Source: a virus
IMG/VR virus record: IMGVR_UViG_3300044971_004534
Reading direction: 5' to 3' (one strand)
DNA length: 64,000 nt
The notes under the pieces were generated by a model. The model was not told the origin of the DNA, did no database searches, and worked only from the letters and a program-made list of their open reading frames with translations. The position numbers and the translations under genes are program-made. Positions 9,698 through 60,004 of the stretch are shown piece by piece. The first letter of the stretch is position 1, and each line of letters opens with the position of its first letter.

Positions 9698-10327
9698 ATG
9701 GCAGAAAAGGAAGAAGTACAAGACAGCTTGTTCTCCCATGTAACCCTTTGGGAAGAACTGAGAGCGTGTAGCAAATGCTCCTCCATGCACCCTCTTTCCC
9801 ACTACAAGTGCATAGATAAAAGGGATAAGAAAGGATACTACCTACGAGGGAAGTGCCGTTTGTGCAAAAAGATTGAGTTTGACCAAAAATACGAACGCAA
9901 GTTGGCAGCAAACTTGTTCCCAGACAAAAGGGAATGCATCGTATGCAAGAAGGAAAAGCACCGCAACCAGTTCAATGTTCACAAGAAAGCAAAGAGCGGA
10001 CTGTACGGTGTATGCAAATCATGTTATGTAAAAAAGAATTACTTTTTCCGCCACTCCCAATCCAATCCCACTCAAGAAGATTTTGAGCGCTATTGCAAAG
10101 CCACTTGCTGCGAATGCTGTGGAGAGCCATTCCAAAAACAGGGGAAAAGAAAAAAGTGTCAAGACCATGACCACGACACAAATGCACTCAGAGGCATCAT
10201 TTGCCAGCAATGCAACTGGGGTGAAGGCTTACTGAAGCATGGTTCAAAATGCATTTCTGAACATTCCCGTTCGTGTGTCTTGAAGTACATGGAGAAGTGG
10301 GGAATCACCCCCAAAGATCCCGCATGA
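9698..10327 (+). CDS. recombination endonuclease VII / HNH-type nuclease
   Basis: CQDHDHDTNALRGIICQQCNWGEG matches the Endo VII DHDH-x-TG-x2-RG-x-LC-x2-CN signature; several CxxC pairs upstream. Confidence 0.75.
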   Translation: MAEKEEVQDSLFSHVTLWEELRACSKCSSMHPLSHYKCIDKRDKKGYYLRGKCRLCKKIEFDQKYERKLAANLFPDKRECIVCKKEKHRNQFNVHKKAKSGLYGVCKSCYVKKNYFFRHSQSNPTQEDFERYCKATCCECCGEPFQKQGKRKKCQDHDHDTNALRGIICQQCNWGEGLLKHGSKCISEHSRSCVLKYMEKWGITPKDPA

Positions 10328-10450
10328 ATCCCATGTCCGATCAAGATGTGCCGCCCGAGTATTGGGTGTACTGGTGCGGTCTTCCAATCCTCGTAAGGGC
10401 GTGACAGCGTTTGGCTCAACGCAACTGCAGCAATAACCCTCATTCCGATC

Positions 10451-10590
10451 TCTGTAGCAAAAGGGGTTTATTAGAAATATACCCCCCTCATTTTCACTTC
10501 TGTAGCAAAAGGGGTTTATTAGAAATATACCCCCCTCATTTGGATCTCCGTAGCAAGGTTTATTAGAAATATACCCCCCTCATTTGGATC
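10451..10590 (+). repeat. 3 tandem copies of a 48-bp unit
   Basis: TCTGTAGCAAAAGGGGTTTATTAGAAATATACCCCCCTCATT at 10451-10492 and 10499-10540; third copy 10547-10584 lacks 4 nt; each unit has a GGGGT...ACCCC hairpin. Confidence 0.85.
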
Positions 10591-10733
10591 TCTACTTGCC
10601 GCCCATCTGCGCCATGGAATTTTCTTATATTAGATAATTCGCTGCCCCACTTCCCTCCACACTGCCCCACATTGCAACACACTTCATCACACTTCTTACA
10701 AAATTCACGGCCCACTGGGGGAGGTTTTCCCTC

Positions 10734-47493: not shown

Positions 47494-47856
47494 ATGCAGG
47501 AACAGACTGATGTTATACACAAGCAGCTTGTGGGTTACGGGATAGAGATAGGGCTTCTTATTTCAGGTTTCTTTGGGGCTTTGCTCCTTGTTTCGAAGAA
47601 CGCATCGCAGCGCATGGGGGCAACGGTTGCGTCGCTTCTTGCGGGAACTGCGTGTGCAAACTACCTGACGCCTGTGGTCCTGAACTTTCTTCCTGAATCC
47701 ATCAGGGCTCAAGGAAAGTACGCTGCTGCCTTCATGATGGGATTCATGGGGTTAAAGGGCTTGGAGCTGATGATAGACAAATTTGTTAAAAAGGAAGAGG
47801 AGGGCGGGAAGAAGAATCGTTCCCGTTCATCCACTAAGAGAAAGGGCAAGTCATGA
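47494..47856 (+). CDS. membrane protein, holin-like (3 predicted helices, basic tail)
   Basis: ORF track; helices GIEIGLLISGFFGALLLV, ATVASLLAGTACANYL, AAFMMGFMGLKGL; tail KKNRSRSSTKRKGKS; the function is a guess. Confidence 0.5.
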   Translation: MQEQTDVIHKQLVGYGIEIGLLISGFFGALLLVSKNASQRMGATVASLLAGTACANYLTPVVLNFLPESIRAQGKYAAAFMMGFMGLKGLELMIDKFVKKEEEGGKKNRSRSSTKRKGKS

Positions 47857-48179
47857 ACGTGATTTCTGTGATAAACGCTGTTGTCAACGGGGTAATGGCG
47901 CTTGGTTTTAGTGCATTTCTGGTGTTCCTGTTTGGAAGAGAGAATTCCCTTATTCATAAATTGGGTAATATGAATGTTATTTTCGTGAAGATCATCCTGA
48001 GCATGTGTGCTTCTGGGGCTCTTTACAATGCGTGCATACTCCACGAGCCAGCGCCTTCGGAGCTGTTGCTTAATGCGGGTGTTGCCGCGCTGTTTTGCTG
48101 GGCTTCCGTATTCCATTACATGCGATTCGTGAAGCCAATTAAGAAAAAAGCGGCAAAGAAAAAAAGACGCACAAAGTGA
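47853..48179 (+). CDS. membrane protein (3 predicted helices, basic tail)
   Basis: ORF track; ATGA overlap; tail KKKAAKKKRRTK. Confidence 0.5.
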   Translation: MNVISVINAVVNGVMALGFSAFLVFLFGRENSLIHKLGNMNVIFVKIILSMCASGALYNACILHEPAPSELLLNAGVAALFCWASVFHYMRFVKPIKKKAAKKKRRTK

Positions 48180-48228
48180 TTACTTAAACAAGGAATGCTA
48201 GCGCAGACAGTTCACTTTTTTGTAAAAA

Positions 48229-48262
48229 GGGATACCTTAGTGAATTGGGGCAATAGTAAGAT
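48229..48262 (+). promoter_or_regulatory. GGGATACCTTAG motif plus TAAGAT, copy 3
   Basis: motif 48229-48240; TAAGAT 48257-48262, 16 nt after CCTTAG; ATG 48281 downstream. Confidence 0.35.
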
Positions 48263-48280
48263 TTGGAGGAAGTATTACGC

Positions 48281-49102
48281 ATGCATACGATTATCAATAC
48301 GCTAAGGGGTCGCTTCGTGCACGGGAAGGACGAGAGCGAGTACTACGAATCAATCATAAAAAACGTCCATACGGGAATGGATCACACGTTCTGCTTTTCC
48401 GTATGCAACACTGAATTGCCAGAGATTCCTCCGGGAACAATTGTATTTTCTACATCTGACGAACACCACAGGCAGCCCATACCGAACCACTTGCAGGAAA
48501 ACGTTGGGATACTTTTGAAGACTTTTTTCCCCAAGGAAGGGGTGACTGACCATCGTGTGCTGCCGTTTCCTCTGGGTTATTTCACGGATTTTGGGGGCCA
48601 TGCGCTTACTCCTATTGCGGAGAGAGGTCTTGACTACTCGTTCTACGGTGCTCACAACGACAATGGTCGTGACAAGCTGCACGGATGGCTAAGGAAGCGA
48701 AAGGGGGACGGATGCAAGAAGGAGTGGGGTTTTTACGAAGGTTGGGGCAAGGGAAAGGGGATGTGGGACTACGGTTCGCTGCTGACGAAGACAAAGATCG
48801 CTCTTTGTCCTCCTGGATACGTGAGTCCTGAATGCGCAAGGCTTCCAGAAGCTGCTCGCTGCGGTTGCGTCCTTCTAGTCCCGAATGACTTGCCCACGCA
48901 TCTATGGTATTTCCAGGGGTTTCCTGGGATAAAGATTGAAGACTGGTCGAACCTGAAGATTGTTGACGAACTGCTTGCAGATCCTAAAAGGATGCAGGAC
49001 ATCAGCGACGAAACAGTGAAATGGTACAACAGGTGCATTGATCCAAAAGCCGTGGGTGCATGGCTTACGGAAAGGATCAAGGAAAGAATCCAAAAGGCAT
49101 AA
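48281..49102 (+). CDS. exostosin (GT47)-like glycosyltransferase
   Basis: ALCPPGYVSPECARLPEAARCGCVLLV resembles the exostosin C-terminal motif; ATG 48281 10 nt after GGAGGA (ORF track lists TTG 48263). Confidence 0.5.
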   Translation: MHTIINTLRGRFVHGKDESEYYESIIKNVHTGMDHTFCFSVCNTELPEIPPGTIVFSTSDEHHRQPIPNHLQENVGILLKTFFPKEGVTDHRVLPFPLGYFTDFGGHALTPIAERGLDYSFYGAHNDNGRDKLHGWLRKRKGDGCKKEWGFYEGWGKGKGMWDYGSLLTKTKIALCPPGYVSPECARLPEAARCGCVLLVPNDLPTHLWYFQGFPGIKIEDWSNLKIVDELLADPKRMQDISDETVKWYNRCIDPKAVGAWLTERIKERIQKA

Positions 49103-49105
49103 ACT

Positions 49106-49591
49106 ATGCAGTACAAATTATCTAAAAGCGAATGGCTCAAAATAGGCGAACAAGCTGGATGGCTGAGGATCAGCGGGGAACAGGCAGTCCTGACGAAGCA
49201 GGGGAAATCAAATGTTGCTGGTGCGGTCTTTCAGGTGATGCGTAAACCCGAGATAGCAAAGAGGATCATTGAACTTTCTAAAATCTGGAATTCCAATTCA
49301 AGCGAGTTTAGCAAGAAGCTTCAAGATCTGGAGCAAGAGATCGTTGTTGACTATCATAATTTTTTGGACACAGGAGCATCAGAAGATTTGTTCATTGACC
49401 GAATCGAGTTACGGAGTATCATTGAAAAAATCATCTATAAAATGCTTGAAGTTGGCGACTTGGGAGTTCGGGAAGCAGGCGAACAAGCTGGATGGCTGAA
49501 GGAAGCCAAGTGCTGGAAGGGCTACAAAGCCGTTGGCATGAAGAAGAAAAAGGGCAAGACCGTTCCCAATTGCGTCCGCAAGGAGAGCTGA
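49106..49591 (+). CDS. QYKLSK-domain protein (module 1, gene A)
   Basis: MQYKLSKSEWLKIGEQAGWLRI N-terminus; C-terminus GEQAGWLKEAKCWKGYKAVGMKKKKGKTVPNCV; internal 22-nt exact repeat 49145/49478. Confidence 0.65.
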   Translation: MQYKLSKSEWLKIGEQAGWLRISGEQAVLTKQGKSNVAGAVFQVMRKPEIAKRIIELSKIWNSNSSEFSKKLQDLEQEIVVDYHNFLDTGASEDLFIDRIELRSIIEKIIYKMLEVGDLGVREAGEQAGWLKEAKCWKGYKAVGMKKKKGKTVPNCVRKES

Positions 49592-50437
49592 ATGGGTTGG
49601 CTCAAGGCGGCGCAGACAAGTGCATGGGGCCAGAACACGAGCAGGGGTGCAAGGGAAATCTACACCGCATTGCGTGAACGTGCCAATCCCCACAGGAGCA
49701 GCGCTGAGCTGAATAAAAAATGGGGGGAGGAAATAGTGAAGATACCGGGTTACGTGTCCCGTTGGTCCGGTGGCAGCTGGGCATACGTGGACTACGACCC
49801 CCAGAAGCGAAAGAACACCGACAGGATGAATCCACTTGCCCACAAGGGAATGGAGTGGAAGCTGTACTTTACCGTCAATCCAAAGGACGGGGGCGCGGAG
49901 AGCATGGGAAACACCCTTGAGGCGTTGAAAGACCTTCCGAGACAGCTGGAGGCAAACCTTGGTCCTCATGGCGTCGCCCTTCTCTACAAGATCCCTGGAA
50001 CCTGGAGTGGATTTTTGCGGGAGAACGACACAGTCGTGATGTATCACCCGTTCGAGCCTCGCAGCAGGTGGACGGACTTCATCTCTTCCGTTGTTCGTGG
50101 CTGGATGGGCAAATGGGGACTGGAGGAAGGGAAGCGTTCGTACAACGAGGGCTTTGACTGGCACGAGCAGACGGAGTACAGGGACGGAACGCAGGTGGAG
50201 CACAAGGAGATGACGGACAGGCTGGGATGGCTGAAGCCAGAGGGATTCATTGCCATGGGGCTGGAAAGGGGTGGTGGATCATTTGGCACTACATTGGCCC
50301 GCTTCATGGAACTTGTTGGCAAGAACCCTGATGACCCGCGCTGGAAGGGCTTGGTGAAGGGGGGAGAGATCAGTATGAAGGAAGCAGCAGACTGGCTTAT
50401 TGGGCACGGCAAAGAGGTAGCACAGGAACTGATGTGA
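49592..50437 (+). CDS. GW-K N-terminus protein (module 1, gene B)
   Basis: MGWLKAAQ start; AAGGAG SD; noticeably more GC-rich than its neighbours. Confidence 0.65.
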   Translation: MGWLKAAQTSAWGQNTSRGAREIYTALRERANPHRSSAELNKKWGEEIVKIPGYVSRWSGGSWAYVDYDPQKRKNTDRMNPLAHKGMEWKLYFTVNPKDGGAESMGNTLEALKDLPRQLEANLGPHGVALLYKIPGTWSGFLRENDTVVMYHPFEPRSRWTDFISSVVRGWMGKWGLEEGKRSYNEGFDWHEQTEYRDGTQVEHKEMTDRLGWLKPEGFIAMGLERGGGSFGTTLARFMELVGKNPDDPRWKGLVKGGEISMKEAADWLIGHGKEVAQELM

Positions 50438-51199: not shown

Positions 51200-51514
51200 A
51201 TGAACTGGTACAAAAGCGCAAGAAAAAGATACGGATCATTCCATTATGACTTTGACGGAATAGAGCTTATTAATCCCATTTGCTTTTGCTCTGGAACTGC
51301 AAATGTGGAATTTTCAATAGAAAGAGATCCAGGTGACAGATATGAGCCTCCGACCACAGATGTTGATCTCAATGTGACAGTTGAGTCACTTTACTGCACA
51401 GACGCAGAGGGTGAAGAAATTCCAGTCACGAATGAAATGGTTAGGGAGGTTGAGGCCATACTCAGAGATGAAGAACATTTGCGAGAAAAAGCCTTTGACC
51501 ACGAATTTGATTAA
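51200..51514 (+). CDS. NWYK N-terminus protein (module 2, gene B)
   Basis: MNWYKSARKRYG start; ORF track. Confidence 0.6.
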   Translation: MNWYKSARKRYGSFHYDFDGIELINPICFCSGTANVEFSIERDPGDRYEPPTTDVDLNVTVESLYCTDAEGEEIPVTNEMVREVEAILRDEEHLREKAFDHEFD

Positions 51515-51601: not shown

Positions 51602-53059
51602 ATGAAAATACTACTCGCAATTTTAGTAAGTGCTCTTATCGTAAACGGTTCTGAATTTAAGAAAAATACAACAAACAAGAACGTCGTAACCGCCACGGAA
51701 ACCCAGGTGAATACGGCGTTTGTCGGTTTTAATGACGGCGTTTCTCTGGAGGACAAACAGAGGACTATTGCATCTCTTGGGAACATGATTGAGTCTGCAC
51801 ATTATTATGAAAATATCCCCAATTTGGCACTTGTCGTTGTTTCGAGTAACTTTATAACTAACATAGCAGACGTGTCAAGTGCACTTGAAGGAAATGAGAC
51901 TGTTTCATTCTTTGAAATGGACAGAAGATTTACCGCAACATACAGCGAAGTGATTCCAAACGATGCCGGATTCTCACAATGCTGGGGTCACAGAAATACC
52001 GGAGCTTCTGGTGGACTGGTAAACTTTGATATGAATACAACAAATGCATGGTCTATTACTCAAGGACAGCCAACGGTAAAAATACTTGTCTTTGAGACAG
52101 GAATACAGCAAGATCATCCAGATATAAATCAACTGCCAGGAAGAGACTTCACAACAGGTGCAGTGAACGGAGTAAGCGGCGGTGGACCAAGCAACTCTTG
52201 TGACAATCACGGGACTGCCGTTGCAGGATGCATTACAGGCATTATCAACAATTCAATAGGAACCGTGGGAACTGCACCAAATTGCAAAGTCATTTCCGCA
52301 AAAGTTGGCACAGCAATCACTCCATGCAATGGGTCGTGGCAGGGGCAAACATCATGGACTGTAAATGCTATTAACTGGGCAATCGGCAATGGAGTAAGGG
52401 TAACAAACAACAGCAATGATTACGGCACAGCTTCTACGGCAATGTCAAATGCATATTCTGCCGCAAAAAATGCTGGAATAGTTAATTTTGCAAGTTCTGG
52501 AAATTCTGGAAACACTTCTATTGGTTTCCCAGCAAGTGCTTCTGCGGTGAACGCAGTTGGTGCAAGCAGCAGAAACGGACAGAAAGCTTCTTTTTCGTCA
52601 TACGGCACAAAGCTCGCTTTTGTTGCTGCTGGCCAATCGGTTTACACCACAGACAGGACGGGATCAAATGGATACTCTTCAGGTGACTATTCACTTATTG
52701 ACGGAACTTCTTTTTCTTCCCCATATGCCGCTGGTGTCGCAGCACTTATCATTTCAGTGAACCCATCACTTTCTGCAGCACAGGTTGAGTCCATTATGCA
52801 AACAACATGCAAGGACATGGGAGCAGTAGGATTTGACACTCTTACTGGATGGGGAATGCTGAATGCAGAAGCTGCCGTGCTTCTTGCTCGCCCTGTTCCA
52901 TGCCCAGCAGATTTAAATGGAGACAGGTCTGTCAATGGAAGCGATCTTGGTCAATTGTTGTCTTCATGGGGTTCATCTGGATCTGACCTTACTGGAGATT
53001 CAGTCGTCAATGGCGAAGATTTAGGCGTTCTTCTTTCTGCATGGGGGCCTTGTCCGTAA
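51602..53059 (+). CDS. secreted subtilisin-like (S8) serine protease with C-terminal dockerin-like repeats
   Basis: Signal peptide MKILLAILVSALIVNG; catalytic D (VFETGIQQDHPD), H (NHGTAVAG), S (GTSFSSPYAAG); tail DLNGDRSVNGSDLGQLLSSWG / DLTGDSVVNGEDLGVLLSAWG. Confidence 0.9.
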   Translation: MKILLAILVSALIVNGSEFKKNTTNKNVVTATETQVNTAFVGFNDGVSLEDKQRTIASLGNMIESAHYYENIPNLALVVVSSNFITNIADVSSALEGNETVSFFEMDRRFTATYSEVIPNDAGFSQCWGHRNTGASGGLVNFDMNTTNAWSITQGQPTVKILVFETGIQQDHPDINQLPGRDFTTGAVNGVSGGGPSNSCDNHGTAVAGCITGIINNSIGTVGTAPNCKVISAKVGTAITPCNGSWQGQTSWTVNAINWAIGNGVRVTNNSNDYGTASTAMSNAYSAAKNAGIVNFASSGNSGNTSIGFPASASAVNAVGASSRNGQKASFSSYGTKLAFVAAGQSVYTTDRTGSNGYSSGDYSLIDGTSFSSPYAAGVAALIISVNPSLSAAQVESIMQTTCKDMGAVGFDTLTGWGMLNAEAAVLLARPVPCPADLNGDRSVNGSDLGQLLSSWGSSGSDLTGDSVVNGEDLGVLLSAWGPCP

Positions 53060-53068
53060 GGTTGCTGT

Positions 53069-53587
53069 ATGAAAGAACATCCGTATACTCCATTTGATGA
53101 TTTTTTTGCAGAGTTTAGATGGTATCAGAAAAGAGGGATAGCTCCTGATATATCAAAAAGTCAGCTTAAAAAAATATGGAATGAATCTCCTGTAGTATTG
53201 CTTGAACCAAAGAATTTTGATTCATTCAGAAACTTCTCTCCATATCGTGAAAAGCTGAATGGCACAATGGAGAACAGAATAAGAAAACTGCTTGAGATAT
53301 CTGCAACGGAAGATAGAGATGAAGTGTTTGACACCAAGTGGGAATTGAAAAGAAAAAAGAATCCACAAAAATACATTATCAATTTAGCTCAACTTGTGTG
53401 GAACAAAGATGGATACGATCCAGTAAATGTAGTGGACATAAATGGTAAAAGACAATTTATCACAGGTGGCAGAACTCGTGCAGCAATCGGAAAAGCACTG
53501 GGAGTTCCCGTGCTGACTCGCATTGTTTGCCTGGAACATAAGGGAAAATGGTCTAAGCGAGCTCGTGAGCTTATGAATGGAAAATGA
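53069..53587 (+). CDS. hypothetical protein, possible ParB/Srx-like nuclease fold
   Basis: VVDINGKRQFITGGRTRAAIGKALGVPVL resembles the ParB N-terminal GxRRxxAA..LG box; weak. Confidence 0.45.
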   Translation: MKEHPYTPFDDFFAEFRWYQKRGIAPDISKSQLKKIWNESPVVLLEPKNFDSFRNFSPYREKLNGTMENRIRKLLEISATEDRDEVFDTKWELKRKKNPQKYIINLAQLVWNKDGYDPVNVVDINGKRQFITGGRTRAAIGKALGVPVLTRIVCLEHKGKWSKRARELMNGK

Positions 53588-53640
53588 CGCGTTGCAGGTA
53601 ATCATCTGTTAGCGTTGAATATATTTCAATGGAGAATTAT

Positions 53641-54096
53641 ATGCAATATAAATTATCAAAGTCAGAGTGGGAATCTATAGGCGTCAATGCTGGGTGGATG
53701 AAAATTGCTGGACCTGGCGGAAGATTTCAGGCTTCCATGAGTGCAGCAGAGCAAAAGTTGTGGGCAAGCCTAAATCAGCAACAAAAAAATAATTATGCAA
53801 CATTGGATGCTGCCAATAGAGCAAGGGTTGCAGCACTGCCATTGCAGCAAGCACAACAATACCTGAACAGCATAATGCCACCAGCTGGAGGTAAAGTCCC
53901 AACAGCTTCATTTGATAATGAAATAAAGACGGCTCTTAAATTAAATGACAAAACTGATGAAAAAACACCAGAGCAGTATAAGGAAGAGTTTATAGAAAGA
54001 ATGAAGTCCATCGGGATGACAGATGAAGAAATCGAGCGTGCACTAAAATCTGGATATTTAGAAAGAATCATGAAAGGCAGAAAGAATAAAGAATGA
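53641..54096 (+). CDS. QYKLSK-domain protein (module 3, gene A)
   Basis: MQYKLSKSEWESIGVNAGWMKIAG; ATG 53641 6 nt after GGAG (ORF track lists 53629). Confidence 0.65.
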   Translation: MQYKLSKSEWESIGVNAGWMKIAGPGGRFQASMSAAEQKLWASLNQQQKNNYATLDAANRARVAALPLQQAQQYLNSIMPPAGGKVPTASFDNEIKTALKLNDKTDEKTPEQYKEEFIERMKSIGMTDEEIERALKSGYLERIMKGRKNKE

Positions 54097-54860
54097 ACTG
54101 GTATAAGCTGGCTCAAAATAGGTCTTTTTCTTGGGCCAATGTAGAGGGTATTTTATACACACCAGAGGCCATGAGAGACTTGAAAGATTTTAAGAAGTCT
54201 CAGGAAGGAAGAAGTGCTAAGGAAATTAGCATGCTTATTAAAGACGTTATTGATAGAAGACAAATTAATTTACGGAATGTAGAATCCAGGTCTGCTGCAA
54301 ATCCTTACATTCCAAACGGACCAAAAGAAAAAATAAAGATTCACGTATTTGAGCCAAGAGGTGTTGGACTCGCTGAAGGTCCCGGAAAGGCTTACAGAAT
54401 AGGAGCACAACTATGTTCTTTAGGAGGAGAAACTTCAGAATCATCAGACAAATACATTCGAGAGCAAGAATTTGAAAGAACTGGACGTAAATTTTTAATT
54501 ATCAAGAGAGTATTTGAAAATCATGATGAAGATTATTTGCCATGGATTAGTCTATATAATTCTTCTCACGTAGATGATTGTCCAAAATACACATTTCAAA
54601 TTCAAAGAAAAGAAAACCAAGAAAAAATAGTAGATCTCAATCCTCAAAACCCTTTTGACTGGTTAGTAAATTCTGTAAAGATGATACGCGATAGAAATAT
54701 TGAAGGCATCAGCATTCATAAAAGAATGCTTGAAGGAAAATCAGAAGAAGAAATTTTTAGTATTTTAGAATTTATGACAAAAAATCAGGCTAGATTCCCA
54801 TCTAATATATTAAAAGATATAGGCAGGTGGATCGAGGAATACGTGGACAGAACAGGGTAA
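54093..54860 (+). CDS. NWYK N-terminus protein (module 3, gene B)
   Basis: MNWYKLAQNRSF start; ATGA overlap. Confidence 0.6.
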   Translation: MNWYKLAQNRSFSWANVEGILYTPEAMRDLKDFKKSQEGRSAKEISMLIKDVIDRRQINLRNVESRSAANPYIPNGPKEKIKIHVFEPRGVGLAEGPGKAYRIGAQLCSLGGETSESSDKYIREQEFERTGRKFLIIKRVFENHDEDYLPWISLYNSSHVDDCPKYTFQIQRKENQEKIVDLNPQNPFDWLVNSVKMIRDRNIEGISIHKRMLEGKSEEEIFSILEFMTKNQARFPSNILKDIGRWIEEYVDRTG

Positions 54861-54880
54861 TACATCTTTGGAAAACACAC

Positions 54881-55336
54881 ATGAACTATTCTGAATTTTA
54901 TGGAACTGGAGATGACGCAAAAAGGCTTAAGCTTATTCTTATGTCTTACGATGAAGAGTATGCACGTCAAATGAAAACATATCCAGAGCAAAAAAATGCT
55001 TTAACAACTCAGTTTAAGTCATATTCAAATCTAGTTATTAATCAACTTAATAGCTACACAGAATCAGGAGAAAGCGCTCCAAGTGGAGTCAGAATGCTTG
55101 GAATTGTTTTCAAAAAGAATTTAAATGTTGCCGCTAAGTACGAGCTTATTAATCCTGTAGAATTTTCTACATATACTGACGCAGCAAAATCTTTCTATGT
55201 CAGTCAAAACTTAGACGTAAGTGAATACTTTGATAATTCAGAAAATTCAACAGAACTGTTTAATAGAATTAATACTAGTCAGGATAATCCTACAGGTATA
55301 ACATACTTAGATTCATCAGGTTCATTAGTGAGGTAA
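54881..55336 (+). CDS. hypothetical protein
   Basis: ATG 54881 in frame of ORF-track 54827..55336. Confidence 0.55.
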   Translation: MNYSEFYGTGDDAKRLKLILMSYDEEYARQMKTYPEQKNALTTQFKSYSNLVINQLNSYTESGESAPSGVRMLGIVFKKNLNVAAKYELINPVEFSTYTDAAKSFYVSQNLDVSEYFDNSENSTELFNRINTSQDNPTGITYLDSSGSLVR

Positions 55337-55341
55337 TAAAG

Positions 55342-55620
55342 ATGTCTTTTAGAGAAAAAATCGGATTTGAAAAACAAGGCGACCAATGGGTTCGCACCCA
55401 GGCAGCGCTAAACGCTGCTGCTCCTAAAGCTATAAGTAGAATTGAAAAACTTATATATTCTGCTGATACTGCTGCAGGTATTGGAGACATGAACGGAGCT
55501 GCGTTTCATGCGAATTGGGCCAGAATTGTCATACAGAGTGCACTAGACAATGGTTTTATTACTCAAAATCAGCACTCAACATACATGTCTCAAATTAACG
55601 CTATTTCTCCGCCAGAATAA
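55342..55620 (+). CDS. hypothetical protein
   Basis: ORF track; SD GTGAGG. Confidence 0.55.
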   Translation: MSFREKIGFEKQGDQWVRTQAALNAAAPKAISRIEKLIYSADTAAGIGDMNGAAFHANWARIVIQSALDNGFITQNQHSTYMSQINAISPPE

Positions 55621-55639
55621 TAGAGATATTAGATACAAC

Positions 55640-55663
55640 AAAGGGGAGCTTTTGGCTCCCCTT
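55640..55663. terminator. bidirectional rho-independent terminator
   Basis: AAAGGGGAGC-tttt-GCTCCCCTTT between convergent genes. Confidence 0.8.
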
Positions 55664-55689
55664 TGTTGTATTATAAAATGTAAAAATAA

Positions 55690-56328
55690 TTATTTACGCT
55701 TACGTTGACTAAAGCTGCAAAGACCTGCAATACCAATAAGAGATACTGCTCCTGGTGCAGGAATTGCGTTTACTCCAAAGCCACAGTAGTCAATAAAGTT
55801 TCCCTGAGTAGATCCGCCTGTGGCGCTAACTGCCTGAAATGCGAATCTTGTCAGATTTCCTATACTAACTATAGATCCTGAATGAAATTGCCAAGCAGTT
55901 TCATCTGCAGTAAAGTTGCCCTGATACAGAACAGTGTCATCTCCGTTGCCATACAGCTGATCTGCGCCAAGATCAATTATTGAAAGCTGCATGACATCAA
56001 CTCCGTATCTGCCTCTGTGAGCAAAATGCCAATTAATTGTATTGAAATCTCCTAAGCCATTGACGTGCTGATACAAAGTAGAATCGTAGTTTGCATTGAG
56101 TTCAGCGAATGAACTTCCCTCATATGCAGGCACTCCAAGAAATCCATCTGACCAAATCTCCAAATTGTTGTCTGGTGCTGTGGTTGCCCAGTTCAAAGTT
56201 GGGTCAGAACCAGAAAAGAAACCATAACCCCAGGTCTGAAAATCTTCAAAACCACCGTTTACAAGATCTGCCATACAACTTGTAGAAATAACTAAAGTAG
56301 ACAAAAATGCACAAGCGTATTTAACCAT
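55690..56328 (-). CDS. secreted PEP-CTERM protein with DUF642-like domain
   Basis: Signal peptide, then DLVNGGFE; C-terminus IPAPGAVSLIGIAGLCSFSQRKRK (PEP-CTERM variant: PxPG, helix, basic cluster); SD AAGGAGGG. Confidence 0.75.
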   Translation of the reverse strand: MVKYACAFLSTLVISTSCMADLVNGGFEDFQTWGYGFFSGSDPTLNWATTAPDNNLEIWSDGFLGVPAYEGSSFAELNANYDSTLYQHVNGLGDFNTINWHFAHRGRYGVDVMQLSIIDLGADQLYGNGDDTVLYQGNFTADETAWQFHSGSIVSIGNLTRFAFQAVSATGGSTQGNFIDYCGFGVNAIPAPGAVSLIGIAGLCSFSQRKRK

Positions 56329-56369
56329 TTAATAAACCCTCCTTATTAAAATTGGTAATGGTGTAAAAA

Positions 56370-57164
56370 TTATATTCTTTTACGATTATGAAAAAATTGA
56401 CTAAAAGCAACTACAGTAAAAGCTCCAGGTGATGGAACGGACGGTGGCACATAGTATCCACCAGTGTCTATACCATAGTACTCTCCAAATCCATAGTTAG
56501 TTCCAAGAGCAAGTGTAGTGCTATAGACATCAAATGGCAGCAAACTAGGAGTAAAAAAGGCTGCGTATGGATCTGCAAATCCTGTTTGAGCTGCCAAAGA
56601 GGTAACCGGGGCTAAATTAATATCTGTCGCCAAAGCTGCCTGCACAATTTGCTTTGTCAATTTATTTTGCTCATTAGTAACAACAAGTGGAGCTTCAACT
56701 GGCTTATCTCCACCAATTTTATTTTCTTTGGGAAATCTAGCAAGTTCATCTGAGATCTGATAGCCACGAGTCTGTTCTTTGTTGTCAATTTTGAATGGTT
56801 TCTGCCAGTGCCCTTGATAAGGTTGGCCAAACAAAGCGGAATTTGACTGCTTATTACTATTATTGTCTTTTTGTTCTTGATTTTTTGGAGCGTCTGCTTT
56901 CCCAATATCAGAAGCTGCAGTTATGGCAGAATTCATGCCATTAATCGCTGACATAAGAGACTGTACTCCACGTTCACCAAGCAATGTGATTGCAGAAGTA
57001 CATACGATGGTCATAACGTAAACTTTTTTCTCTAAGCTTTTAACCTTAGATTTTGCTTCTTCACACATTCTGGCACATGAAGAGCATCCCCCAGAAATGC
57101 TCTCAACATGCGAGTGTGAAACTGGCGTAGGCGCAGGCTGCTGAATGTCTTTTTTAATCCCCAT
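56370..57164 (-). CDS. PEP-CTERM-like membrane/secreted protein
   Basis: C-terminus VPSPGAFTVVAFSQFFHNRKRI; internal helix VYVMTIVCTSAITLL. Confidence 0.55.
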   Translation of the reverse strand: MGIKKDIQQPAPTPVSHSHVESISGGCSSCARMCEEAKSKVKSLEKKVYVMTIVCTSAITLLGERGVQSLMSAINGMNSAITAASDIGKADAPKNQEQKDNNSNKQSNSALFGQPYQGHWQKPFKIDNKEQTRGYQISDELARFPKENKIGGDKPVEAPLVVTNEQNKLTKQIVQAALATDINLAPVTSLAAQTGFADPYAAFFTPSLLPFDVYSTTLALGTNYGFGEYYGIDTGGYYVPPSVPSPGAFTVVAFSQFFHNRKRI

Positions 57165-57304
57165 TTGTACCCCCCGATACTTTGAAGTTGCGAATATACT
57201 TAATTTAAAAATACGATATATTATTTCATTTTCCTTTTGTAATAAGCACTCATCTTATTTGATAATAGTCAGAAAGGTAATGGATTTATTTTTAGTAATA
57301 TTTT

Positions 57305-60004
57305 ATGTATTTAAAGTATTTTATGAATATAGAAAAAACTGCACAACTTAATTGGTTTCGAGGAATAAGGGATCGCATTCGTGGCAACAAGCCAGATGAA
57401 AGCGGTCAAGAATTGTCATTTAATGAACAAGAACTGCGTGGGCTTGAAGAAATAGAAAGAAGAAAGACTGAAGAAGAAAGAAAAAGAGTTGATAAGCTGG
57501 TCCAAGAATCAAAAGAAAGAGCTGAAAGCTTTGGTAGACCTGACAATATTCCCGGAAAATTTGAATTAAGTAGATCTAGTATTCAAAATATATTGTCTAT
57601 GGACAGAGATACTTTATGGCATAAGCTTTGTGCATCTTTTGAGAATTGTTCTCCTTATGTTTCTGAAACTACGGCACAAAGGGGAAGAATAATAAGATAT
57701 CTTGTAGACACTAGGCAAGGCGATTATCGAGGTGGCTGGGGAAGTGTGCTTAGGAGCATAGATTTTCTACTGCAAGGATTAGAATTAGATATACGTAATG
57801 CAGGCAATAATAGTAAAGCGGCAATATCTCATAATAATATGCAAGAAATTTTTACCAATAGAGATTGGCTCATGGCAAATAAAGATGGAATTCAACGAGC
57901 CTATGCACAAGCATCTCCAGACTCTATTAATAAAGAAGTTTTAAATAAATTTTTAACAAATAAACAATCGTATTATGCTCGACGTGATGCAGCTATAGAA
58001 GTATGGGCATCATTTTTAAAAAATAAATATCAATATTACTATGGAAATACATTAAGTGATCAGTATTTTTATAATATTCATCTGTATGCGGATAGGTTAT
58101 GGGAAGATTTTAAATTATATTTTCGATTGATGTCAGGTAATCTATTCCACAACATAGGCATTCAATTAGGTAAAAAATACTTACCAGAAGATATGCAATC
58201 AATTTCTGATGGTGTTCATGCAATAGATGTAAGTATGTTCGACATAGCAAAGCCAGCTAATTTAATGCAATCACGCAGTAATGCAAGGGGTGAAAATGAT
58301 ATCTTTTATAATTGGACCGTGAATAAATGGAAAGAATTTGTAGAAGATACACATTTAATGCTAAGCGTCTTTGGATTTAATTTAAAAGGTGTGTCAAATA
58401 TTAATAATATAAATGGAGAAAATTTATATTACAATATGATGCAAAAAATAATTATGATAGAAAATATTGTTAATAGAGATCCTTTTATAAGTCATATTTT
58501 TAATAACAGTAGATTAGATTTAGGAGATAGCTATTATATATATGCACAAATTAAAGACAAAATGAGTGCTGATCATAATCCAAATAGAGAAGAATATTTA
58601 GTTTCTATATTAAATCAAATTTATGTTAATCAGCATGGAGGGTACTCAAGAGCAATATCTGAAGCTTCAGATGAAAGTTTGAGATCGGCGGCAGATAGGG
58701 TGCCATTTGCAGTAGAACATATTTTATTGCATTTAGAATTTGGTGAAAATATGTATAATGTTATTAATAATTTTGACCAATATCAATCTGCTCTAAATTC
58801 ATACAGAGAAAAACAGCATTCAGCATTAAAAAAAGTAAGAAACGTTCTAGCCAATCCTGATTTAACACAGATGTCTCCCGAAGAGGCAAGACAGTATTTT
58901 GTAGAAAAACTTAATAGACTAGCGAATAGGGAGTTTGAAGGTAGCAATATCGAAAAGGCAAAGCAAGAGCAAATTCTTGATTCTCCATTTGAGCACACAT
59001 CAGTGATAAGACCGTCTACCTTTCCTGGTCAAGCAGCATTTAATAGCAACTCCTTGCCTGAATTGCAAGGAACTCCAATTTCTTTTAATATAGCAATTTA
59101 TCCAAAAAAGAAAGAAAATGACCCGGAAAACTTTGCACAAGTTCTTGCTCCAGGTGGGCACGCACAAGATGGACTAAACTTTCATCATCAGAATATTCCG
59201 TCATTAGAAAATAAGAAATATTATAGTCATATACTTGGCTGGATAGGTGGATGGGTTGACGTAGTAGGCTCGAACATGTATATAGCAGAAATTCAAAGCG
59301 ACGTTATGCAACATACGTCTTACATGAAAGATCCAGAAAAGTCAAAAACAAAATTGAACGAAGAACTTAAAAAGCAAATGCAAGAATTGCAAAAAGAAAA
59401 AGACAATCTTGCTAAACAATCTACAGAAGGTATAGAAAAATTCTATGATAAAAGAATTGAAGAGTTAGAAAAAAAGAGAGATAGCGCAAATAATGAGGCA
59501 ATGAAGCAGCAAATGGATACTGCAATAAAAAAATTAACAGAACAAAAAAACGCTAAAGAAGATCCGTGGGTTAAACTAAGAAAAAAAATAAAAGACATAG
59601 AAAATGTTATTGTTGAAATTAAAAATCAAATTCAAGAGCTTATTGATTATGAAAGAAACACTAACGATCAATGGAGAAAAAGGCCGCAGTTTGCTGATGT
59701 AAAGTCAAAAATAGAAAATAGATTTTCTGAATATGTCGATGTTTTTTATAATGAAGCAATTTACTATTGTGCTCAACTCAAAATTAAAGGTTTATGGATA
59801 GTGCATTCAGATCTTTTAGCTGCAGTCTGGCGACATTTTGCAACGGCTGATACCGTAGAAATGTATAAGAAAATATACGACAAACGAGCGATGGAGATGG
59901 GAGCAGAAAAGAAGGGCAACTGGTGGCACTTAGATCTTACCAAGAAAATGCCTAAGTATGCAAGCACAAATTGGTATCAAAGGACTAAAAATGGGATGGT
60001 ATAA
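57305..60004 (+). CDS. large hypothetical protein (899 aa), paralog 1
   Basis: ORF track (alt. start ATG 57323, MNIEKTAQLNWFRG); C-terminal ~350 aa colinear with the next gene incl. IAEIQSDVMQ and ENRF motifs; ends STNWYQRTKNGMV. Confidence 0.7.
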   Translation: MYLKYFMNIEKTAQLNWFRGIRDRIRGNKPDESGQELSFNEQELRGLEEIERRKTEEERKRVDKLVQESKERAESFGRPDNIPGKFELSRSSIQNILSMDRDTLWHKLCASFENCSPYVSETTAQRGRIIRYLVDTRQGDYRGGWGSVLRSIDFLLQGLELDIRNAGNNSKAAISHNNMQEIFTNRDWLMANKDGIQRAYAQASPDSINKEVLNKFLTNKQSYYARRDAAIEVWASFLKNKYQYYYGNTLSDQYFYNIHLYADRLWEDFKLYFRLMSGNLFHNIGIQLGKKYLPEDMQSISDGVHAIDVSMFDIAKPANLMQSRSNARGENDIFYNWTVNKWKEFVEDTHLMLSVFGFNLKGVSNINNINGENLYYNMMQKIIMIENIVNRDPFISHIFNNSRLDLGDSYYIYAQIKDKMSADHNPNREEYLVSILNQIYVNQHGGYSRAISEASDESLRSAADRVPFAVEHILLHLEFGENMYNVINNFDQYQSALNSYREKQHSALKKVRNVLANPDLTQMSPEEARQYFVEKLNRLANREFEGSNIEKAKQEQILDSPFEHTSVIRPSTFPGQAAFNSNSLPELQGTPISFNIAIYPKKKENDPENFAQVLAPGGHAQDGLNFHHQNIPSLENKKYYSHILGWIGGWVDVVGSNMYIAEIQSDVMQHTSYMKDPEKSKTKLNEELKKQMQELQKEKDNLAKQSTEGIEKFYDKRIEELEKKRDSANNEAMKQQMDTAIKKLTEQKNAKEDPWVKLRKKIKDIENVIVEIKNQIQELIDYERNTNDQWRKRPQFADVKSKIENRFSEYVDVFYNEAIYYCAQLKIKGLWIVHSDLLAAVWRHFATADTVEMYKKIYDKRAMEMGAEKKGNWWHLDLTKKMPKYASTNWYQRTKNGMV

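Follow-up and report, generated by a model that had tools for sequence, protein, structure and literature searches.

A giant uncultured freshwater phage carries a pair of adjacent genes, here named PEP1 and PEP2, whose products both end in a PEP-CTERM-like tail. The pair lies in a window of 64,000 nt (the whole stretch of DNA that was analysed) from IMG/VR record IMGVR_UViG_3300044971_004534, and the region studied here (positions 51602-57164) additionally contains a gene for an S8 subtilase with a dockerin-like tail. We give about an even chance to the reading that PEP1 and PEP2 form a phage-specific cassette, that both proteins are sorted to the surface by the exosortase of the host and modify the glycan surface of the infected cell, and that the S8 protein is docked at the same place. 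The region holds two separate things, the cassette and the S8 gene, with one common theme, i.e., exported phage proteins equipped with host-type surface-anchoring modules. In this way, the phage probably places proteins of its own on the host surface. The features of the three genes are as follows (lengths in amino acids, aa):

55690..56328, minus strand: PEP1, 212 aa, with signal peptide, beta-sandwich of ~165 residues, and PEP-CTERM-like tail
55693..55767, minus strand: putative sorting tail of PEP1 (residues 188-212), with IPAPG, ~14 hydrophobic residues, and RKRK
56370..57164, minus strand: PEP2, 264 aa, with Cys-containing N-terminal coil, hydrophobic helix, low-complexity middle, conserved motif, and tail
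56976-57023, minus strand: hydrophobic helix of PEP2 (~residues 48-63), ~16 residues following a coil of ~45 residues
56373-56438, minus strand: PEP-CTERM-like tail of PEP2 (residues 243-264)
51602..53059, plus strand: S8 subtilase precursor, 485 aa, with signal-peptide-like segment, probable propeptide, catalytic domain (residues 159-418), and dockerin-like module
52901..53056, plus strand: dockerin-like tail of the S8 protein (residues 434-485), with the repeats DLNGDRSVNGSDLGQLL and DLTGDSVVNGEDLGVLL between CP...GPCP

PEP1 Combines a Signal Peptide, a Carbohydrate-Binding-Type Fold, and a Conserved Tail

The original prediction, made from the sequence of the window, had described PEP1 by its signal peptide, the stretch DLVNGGFE, and a tripartite tail, and all three are present. 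The cleavable signal peptide (~20 residues, A-x-A type) is followed by DLVNGGFE, the C-terminus reads ...IPAPGAVSLIGIAGLCSFSQRKRK, and a strong ribosome-binding site (AAGGAGG) is located 9 nt upstream of the gene. A search of 5.8 billion proteins returned 161 homologues, all of ~210 aa, with 55-86% identity among the 120 that were listed. Throughout the family, the signal peptide has a median length of 20 residues, with Ala at position -1 (107 of 118 sequences) and a small residue at position -3. The tail is kept in 111 of 119 members and comprises the motif [IV]PxP[GS], a median of 14 hydrophobic residues, and ~4 Arg/Lys; the middle residue of the motif is Ala, Ser, Thr, or Gly instead of Glu. 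Across 118 sequences, P190 is invariant and P192 is conserved to at least 90%, while the sequence of the helix varies freely, a pattern to be expected of a recognition motif but not of a simple anchor.

The AlphaFold2 model of PEP1 (predicted local distance difference test, pLDDT, 88.2) consists of an N-terminal helix, a beta-sandwich, and a C-terminal helix. Using Foldseek, the sandwich was matched to the carbohydrate-binding modules (CBMs) CBM4-2, CBM16, CBM22, and CBM61 (probability 1.0, E-values from 2.6e-6 to 1e-5, target template-modelling score ≤0.7), and among viral models (BFVD) to distal modules at tail-fibre tips and to CenC and F5/8-type modules. On the strength of the model, the fold of PEP1 is a CBM4/16/22-like jelly roll. 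A DUF642-like domain, as originally proposed, could not be confirmed, since PF04862 gave no match even at E ≤10. DUF642 and the CBM-type jelly roll presumably belong to the same broad fold class, and we take an N-terminal NGGFE-type motif to be typical of the CBM clan. PEP1 shares the beta-sandwich jelly roll with solved CBM4/16/22/61 modules (Rhodothermus marinus CBM4-2, 2y6k; CBM16, 2zew; TmCBM61, 2xom), but differs from them in lacking a Pfam match and in being a stand-alone module on a putative sorting tail, not a part of an enzyme or fibre. As to the likeness to receptor-binding tips of phage tail fibres, which was seen in the BFVD matches, four related phages contained only the single PEP1 gene and no PEP1-like domain in their tail proteins, so that a link between PEP1 and phage receptor-binding proteins is unsupported at the sequence level.

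Outside of the family, a 562-aa protein encoded on a Firmicute-type contig (GenBank OR846807) begins with a PEP1-like domain (31.5% identity, E-value 1e-12). The protein terminates in LPQTG, a helix, and a basic tail, so the module serves elsewhere as the displayed part of a sortase-anchored surface protein. A displayed PEP1-like module plus a C-terminal sorting signal would thus be common to PEP1 and to this Firmicute LPXTG protein, which relies, however, on a different sorting enzyme and signal and is a cellular, multi-domain, adhesin-like protein. The underlying record (OR846807.1, 'UNVERIFIED_ORG: Listeria phage LM 4-11-1', our locus L074) also holds an XRE/TPR-type regulator and looks like bacterial (Firmicute) DNA, not phage DNA. 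As a side observation, 51 of 118 PEP1 family members weakly match NF012221, which covers the N-terminal region of MARTX (best E-value 7e-6).

PEP2 Is the Regular Partner of PEP1

PEP2 ends in ...VPSPGAFTVVAFSQFFHNRKRI. PEP2 diverges rapidly, and an alignment of 22 homologues (30% mean column identity) revealed only five invariant columns (M1, C30, G63, P244, and R263). Two of the five are tail positions, namely the first Pro (P244) and an Arg of the basic cluster (R263). Because the N-terminal coil is conserved, we preferred the start giving 264 aa over a call of 214 aa. A further conserved motif, FFTPS.LPFDVYSTT..G.NYGFGEYYG, is located between the low-complexity region and the tail. The AlphaFold2 model (pLDDT 53.8) comprises a helix at residues 28-85, a disordered middle, and a second helix at residues 248-258. 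We found 50 homologues of PEP2, none of them named; the tripartite tail occurs in 33 of 47, and some relatives carry the canonical motifs VPEPST or IPEPQ.

A PEP2-family gene is located directly upstream of PEP1 and on the same strand in 40 of 42 sources; these were the window with its relatives and a set of 40 related loci (L005-L042, L045). Within the window, PEP2-PEP1 is inverted relative to all neighbours and is bordered by two features read from the sequence:

55635..55669: hairpin with a perfect 15-bp stem and a 5-nt loop, between convergent stops
57165..57304: divergent intergenic region of 140 bp, rich in adenine and thymine (AT), between PEP2 (minus strand) and the gene starting at 57305 (plus strand)

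The hairpin is common to PEP1 and the convergent gene at 55342-55620 (plus strand) and is the probable transcription stop of the cassette; it does not appear in a consensus terminator scan because it has no T run. The intergenic region probably holds the promoter of the cassette. A scan for sigma-70-like promoters gave matches at the background level (7 versus 6.9 in shuffles), and no promoter is therefore demonstrated. In related phages, we further observed three unrelated open reading frames (ORFs) with a tail of the type PxPG...RRRR (L022:10692-11702 and L024:12705-13166, both on the minus strand, and L041:984-1421 on the plus strand), one of which adjoins PEP1; tailed cargo hence extends beyond the PEP pair.

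The Tails Resemble PEP-CTERM Sorting Signals

Protein sorting by the PEP-CTERM/exosortase system (TIGR02595 and PF07589 for the tails; EpsH/XrtA, PF09721, for the enzyme) was reportedly described by Haft and colleagues in 2006. As originally predicted, both minus-strand genes show the PEP-CTERM layout with a complete tripartite tail. In a six-frame scan of the whole window (ORFs ≥60 aa), a PxP motif followed by a hydrophobic stretch and a basic C-terminus was found only in PEP1 and PEP2. With only two tailed ORFs, which are adjacent, and only two dockerin repeats in the window, chance is an unreasonable explanation; a chance resemblance was rejected, given that each of the two patterns is unique to these genes within the window.

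To extend the comparison to the family, 118 PEP1 homologues were scanned singly as full-length proteins. At E ≤1, 40 of them matched TIGR02595 (best E-value 0.0015), 27 matched the PEP-CTERM subfamily NF038125, and 20 matched MYXO-CTERM; one family member carries the NCBI name PEP-CTERM protein. Tails of PEP2 relatives reached 12.6-13.2 bits on the PEP-CTERM models. We also built a profile from the tails of a single Phycisphaeraceae genome, described below, and applied it to 836 ORFs from the related phage loci. It recovered PEP1 (31 ORFs), PEP2 (15 ORFs), and a few others, among them three that plainly end in a tail of this type; PEP1 of the window scored 18.7 bits (E-value 6.5e-5). The invariant first Pro in 118 PEP1 sequences and the invariant Pro and Arg in 22 PEP2 sequences support the view that both tails are real, constrained sorting-type signals. 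They resemble the known system in the order of their parts (Pro-rich motif, then hydrophobic helix, then Arg/Lys cluster), in the signal peptide of PEP1, and in the agreement of the tail type with that of an exosortase-bearing Phycisphaeraceae genome. They differ from it in being phage-encoded and in the motif itself, a PxPG whose central residue is Ala, Ser, Thr, or Gly.

The S8 Subtilase Has a Dockerin-Like Tail and Is Not Part of the Cassette

The S8 domain is unambiguous. It matches Peptidase_S8 (PF00082) with 135.5 bits versus 21.8 (E-value 3e-39, profile positions 4-288 of 288) and phrog_3677 'protease' with an E-value of 6.8e-46, and its best solved relative is subtilisin Carlsberg (E-value 1.2e-36). 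The two dockerin-like repeats that had been proposed for its C-terminus were likewise found, at 52910 and 52985, and are the only copies of the dockerin-type repeat pattern in the window. The corresponding hidden Markov models did not confirm them: the tail reached 19.1 bits on the GC-type dockerin model NF041540 (cut-off 29, E-value 0.0013) and an insignificant 10.9 bits on Dockerin_1, PF00404 (22.9 required, E-value 0.54).

In more than 100 homologues, the S8 domain is likewise preceded by an N-terminal hydrophobic segment and followed by a C-terminal module of two repeats between cysteines; the CP...GPCP brackets and their C-terminal position are kept in both phage-type and Phycisphaerae S8 homologues. 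The nearest named cellular relatives stem from metagenome-assembled genomes (MAGs) of Phycisphaeraceae/Phycisphaerae (44-47% identity over 92% of the length), and one Phycisphaerae relative lies on a 564-kb contig beside the genes for ribosomal protein S2 and EF-Ts, i.e., it is chromosomal. The Phycisphaerae proteins with a GC-type dockerin (e.g., P0225) thus have the same architecture of signal peptide, S8 domain, and Cys-bracketed tail, but they measure 550-600 aa compared to 470-485 aa in the phage clade, whose tail remains under the cut-off of NF041540. The catalytic site differs as well. His203, Ser370, and the oxyanion residue Asn301 are invariant in 113 homologues, whereas the position of the catalytic Asp32 of subtilisin Carlsberg is occupied by Glu165 (~52094-52096), with Glu in 81 and Asp in 32 of the 113 sequences. 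Asp is kept in the more distant homologues, including the named ones from Phycisphaerae, and Glu marks the closer clade, which is presumably phage-borne. Judging by the sequence, activity with a Glu-His-Ser triad is plausible.

The S8 gene and the other flanking genes of the window are linked to the PEP pair in only one sub-lineage (L015 and L075). With linkage confined to the sub-lineage of the window, we rejected the S8 protein as a member of the conserved cassette.

Both Types of Anchor Point to Phycisphaerae as Probable Hosts

A 2.7-Mb Phycisphaeraceae genome with an S8 relative encodes an exosortase (PF09721, 143.9 bits). It contains 24 matches to TIGR02595, with tails that almost all follow [VI]P[TAS]PG[AS]...RRRR, and 103 matches to the GC-type dockerin model NF041540. 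The latter model was matched in none of 14 control genomes at the cut-off and in none of 61 Bacteroidota genomes at E ≤1e-5. Of 121 genomes sampled from the candidate host class, 119 have an exosortase. This comparison took in Phycisphaerae, Bacteroidota, and the 14 control genomes. Since both anchor types, the PxPG tails and the Cys-bracketed dockerins, match Phycisphaerae, this is the probable host lineage; the phage probably infects Phycisphaerae (Planctomycetota), as deduced from the sequences of both anchors. The S8 relatives, tails, exosortase, and dockerins of Phycisphaerae bear out an earlier hint toward Planctomycetes. Large phages have been predicted to infect Planctomycetes in a lake-enrichment paper, in which sorting tails and dockerin features are not mentioned.

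Proposed Role of the Cassette

PEP1 would leave the cytoplasm through Sec and stay fixed in the inner membrane through its C-terminal helix. We infer that the host exosortase then cuts PEP1 at [IV]PxPG and delivers it to the slime layer or the surface of the cell, where the carbohydrate-binding-type beta-sandwich may bind a host glycan. PEP2 may act as a mostly disordered partner that is anchored at both ends, by its N-terminal membrane helix and by a tail of the same kind. The likeliest role would be to mask or alter the glycan surface of the infected cell and thereby either to block superinfection or to stop progeny from sticking to debris, with the cassette acting together with envelope and lysis genes of the phage. 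The S8 protein, a subtilase with a Glu-His-Ser triad, is predicted to be secreted, and its dockerin-like tail would attach it to the same surface.

Such a role would be in the manner of phage T5 Llp. The lipoprotein Llp of phage T5 and the proteins Imm and Sp of phage T4 are envelope proteins that block superinfection or protect progeny. All of these, like PEP1 and PEP2 in the proposed model, are small exported phage proteins of the envelope that use a host sorting route, which is lipoprotein sorting in the case of Llp. In contrast, they have no relation to the PEP proteins in sequence or fold, and for the PEP proteins the route would be exosortase and the function is a prediction.

Several results weigh against this model. 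Concerning the tails, PEP1 of the window stays below the curated cut-offs of TIGR02595 (14.8 bits versus 16) and PF07589 (15.2 bits versus 20.7), PEP2 matches neither of these two models, and on the Phycisphaeraceae-tail profile PEP2 is barely recognised, with only 6.3 bits. A check by PEP-CTERM models therefore turned out negative for the tails of the window and positive at the level of the family (40 of 118 PEP1 homologues). Accepted Phycisphaeraceae tails score 13-24 bits on TIGR02595, a range that includes the value of PEP1. Concerning the proteins, PEP2 lacks a classical signal peptide (as judged without a dedicated predictor) and its structure model is poor; eight relatives have a short PEP2 without a tail; and glycan binding by PEP1 is deduced from fold similarity at a sequence identity of only 10-17%. 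In one relative (L045, an IMG/VR contig of 145,204 bp), PEP1 is broken into three pieces by stop codons or frameshifts (~10001-10626) and is apparently a pseudogene; the gene upstream of it is not PEP2-like. Exosortase was not found in four related phage fragments (55-83% complete). Finally, with Glu in place of the catalytic Asp, activity of the S8 protein is not assured.

Neighbouring Envelope Genes and Alternative Readings

In about 25 of the 40 loci, the PEP pair adjoins holin-family or other small membrane-protein genes. Its neighbours in the relatives are a holin-family gene (phrog_2359 'holin', E-value 1.3e-10; also phrog_126 and phrog_198), the small membrane partner of the latter, a three-helix membrane protein, and a lipobox protein. 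Counterparts of the first two are retained in the window, 7.8 kb from the pair:

47494..47856, plus strand: holin-family membrane protein, 120 aa, found by tblastn with the gene of the relatives (55-64% identity, E-value ~1e-40)
47853..48179, plus strand: small membrane protein, the partner 'c28', 108 aa (tblastn E-values down to 6e-25), overlapping the holin-family gene by ATGA

No endolysin was identified beside the PEP pair or near 47494-48179. Because of the holin-family and membrane-protein neighbours, the pair belongs to the envelope gene set of the phage and may have a role in lysis. The lipobox protein ('c3', L006:8898-9224 and homologues), for which the databases gave no match, is encoded immediately ahead of PEP2 in ~16 related phages; it combines the lipobox LLLAGC with a C-terminal hydrophobic helix, which is the layout of a unimolecular spanin.

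This neighbourhood invites the reading that PEP2 and PEP1 are periplasmic or membrane parts of a lysis or lysis-timing apparatus, in which the tail would serve as a membrane anchor, with or without help from exosortase. PEP2 might be an antiholin-like sensor, or it might span the envelope with its N-terminus in the inner membrane and its C-terminus in the outer layer. The adjacent phrog_2359 gene, three-helix protein, and spanin-like lipobox protein in relatives fit this idea, as do the two genes kept in the window and the layout of PEP2, in which a long flexible middle connects an N-terminal helix to a C-terminal anchor. Not all loci show the linkage, however: in ~15 of the 40, the window among them, the pair is located elsewhere, and an adjacent endolysin was not identified. 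Moreover, spanins and antiholins are not known to make use of a domain of the carbohydrate-binding type, and a plain anchor would not need an invariant PxP motif. We regard this reading, the main rival of our model, as unlikely, if worth keeping in mind.

A rather doubtful alternative holds that the tails are PEP-CTERM lookalikes, which merely anchor the C-terminus in the membrane in the usual way, with a basic cluster for stop-transfer, and on which no sorting enzyme acts. The scores below the curated cut-offs, the missing match for PEP2, the negative exosortase search in the four phage fragments, and the weak matches to MYXO-CTERM and other tail models would be in line with this. Against it stand the invariant PxP next to a variable helix and the canonical VPEPST or IPEPQ in some relatives. 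In addition, tails of the same type occur in a lineage that bears exosortase and to which the S8 and dockerin homology points independently.

A more far-reaching conjecture, to which we assign a slim chance, is that PEP2-PEP1 constitutes an unrecognised exosortase-dependent envelope device. Here, PEP2 would span the envelope, its N-terminal helix remaining in the inner membrane and its C-terminus being handed to the outer layer by exosortase, and PEP1 would bind surface glycan; with the holin-family genes, the device might control when lysis occurs, bring it to completion, or close the cell to superinfection.

The Block Belongs to the Phage

The region is part of a megaphage genome. Metagenome contigs carry its proteins, the longest measuring 406,100 bp, and the identical gene order was found amid small ORFans in four independent assemblies (JGI, ENA, Logan, and NCBI; contigs of 73-280 kb), which supports that the block sits inside a phage. 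The window furthermore contains seven transfer RNA genes and one transfer-messenger RNA gene. With the PEP1 profile, 40 IMG/VR viral contigs were matched, compared to a single locus among 185,579 species genomes (one genome per species). This locus, on a 9.5-kb contig in a bin labelled Bacteroidota that lacks exosortase, is a mis-binned contig. Among 61 Phycisphaerae genomes, the profile found nothing convincing (one marginal match of 21.7 bits, profile positions 1-82). Thus, the PEP pair looks phage-specific, and the suggestion that this part of the block was derived from the host found no support in these cellular genomes.

It is hardly credible, and we have dropped the idea in view of the four assemblies, the 40 viral contigs, and the near absence from cellular genomes, that the block is host chromosome or a recent host-derived island: the content of guanine plus cytosine (GC) falls from ~55-60% to 32-44% around 48-50 kb, the S8 and dockerin architecture is found in Phycisphaerae chromosomes too, and some PEP1 contigs are included in bacterial MAG bins, but the labels of these MAGs conflict (Alphaproteobacteria versus Bacteroidota), identity between the phage S8 clade and its cellular counterparts reaches only 44-47%, an Asp-to-Glu change sets this clade apart, and the conserved gene order is embedded among ORFans and tagged proteins of the phage.

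The GC content remains low up to the end of the window, so that the region studied lies in the AT-richer part. Just upstream of the drop (~48000-50000), assemblies L002 and L003 diverge from L001 and L004, which indicates strain-level variation. The tagged proteins share recurrent N-termini on otherwise unrelated flanking genes: MQYKLSKSEW..AGW at the gene starts 49106, 50663, and 53629, and an NWYK-type tag at 51200, 54093, and 59958. The S8 protein, PEP1, and PEP2 have neither tag. Searches with Pfam, NCBIfam, and PHROGs models gave no useful match for the flanking proteins of 899 and 1042 aa and none for PEP1, PEP2, and the ORFs between the S8 gene and PEP1.

Implications

Our literature searches found no paper on phage-encoded PEP-CTERM proteins. 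New in this work are the observations that PEP2 and PEP1 are strictly paired and that the pair is linked to envelope and lysis genes, the CBM-type fold of PEP1, the match of two anchor types to Phycisphaerae, and the subtilase clade with Glu for Asp, a conserved change that is a small enzymological curiosity. The hosts of uncultured jumbo phages and megaphages are otherwise hard to assign, and the two anchor types allow Phycisphaerae to be predicted from sequence as the hosts of a large clade of such phages from freshwater. The targets to which exosortases attach proteins are poorly understood, and the compact, conserved cassette with the small, well-folded PEP1 would offer a convenient substrate for their study. 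The envelope device, if real, would be the first phage envelope system that depends on a sorting enzyme, and would likewise give a handle on these attachment targets. If our preferred reading of PEP1 and PEP2 as surface-sorted proteins is true, huge phages would remodel the infected cell through a surface-sorting route of the host beyond the lipoprotein pathway.

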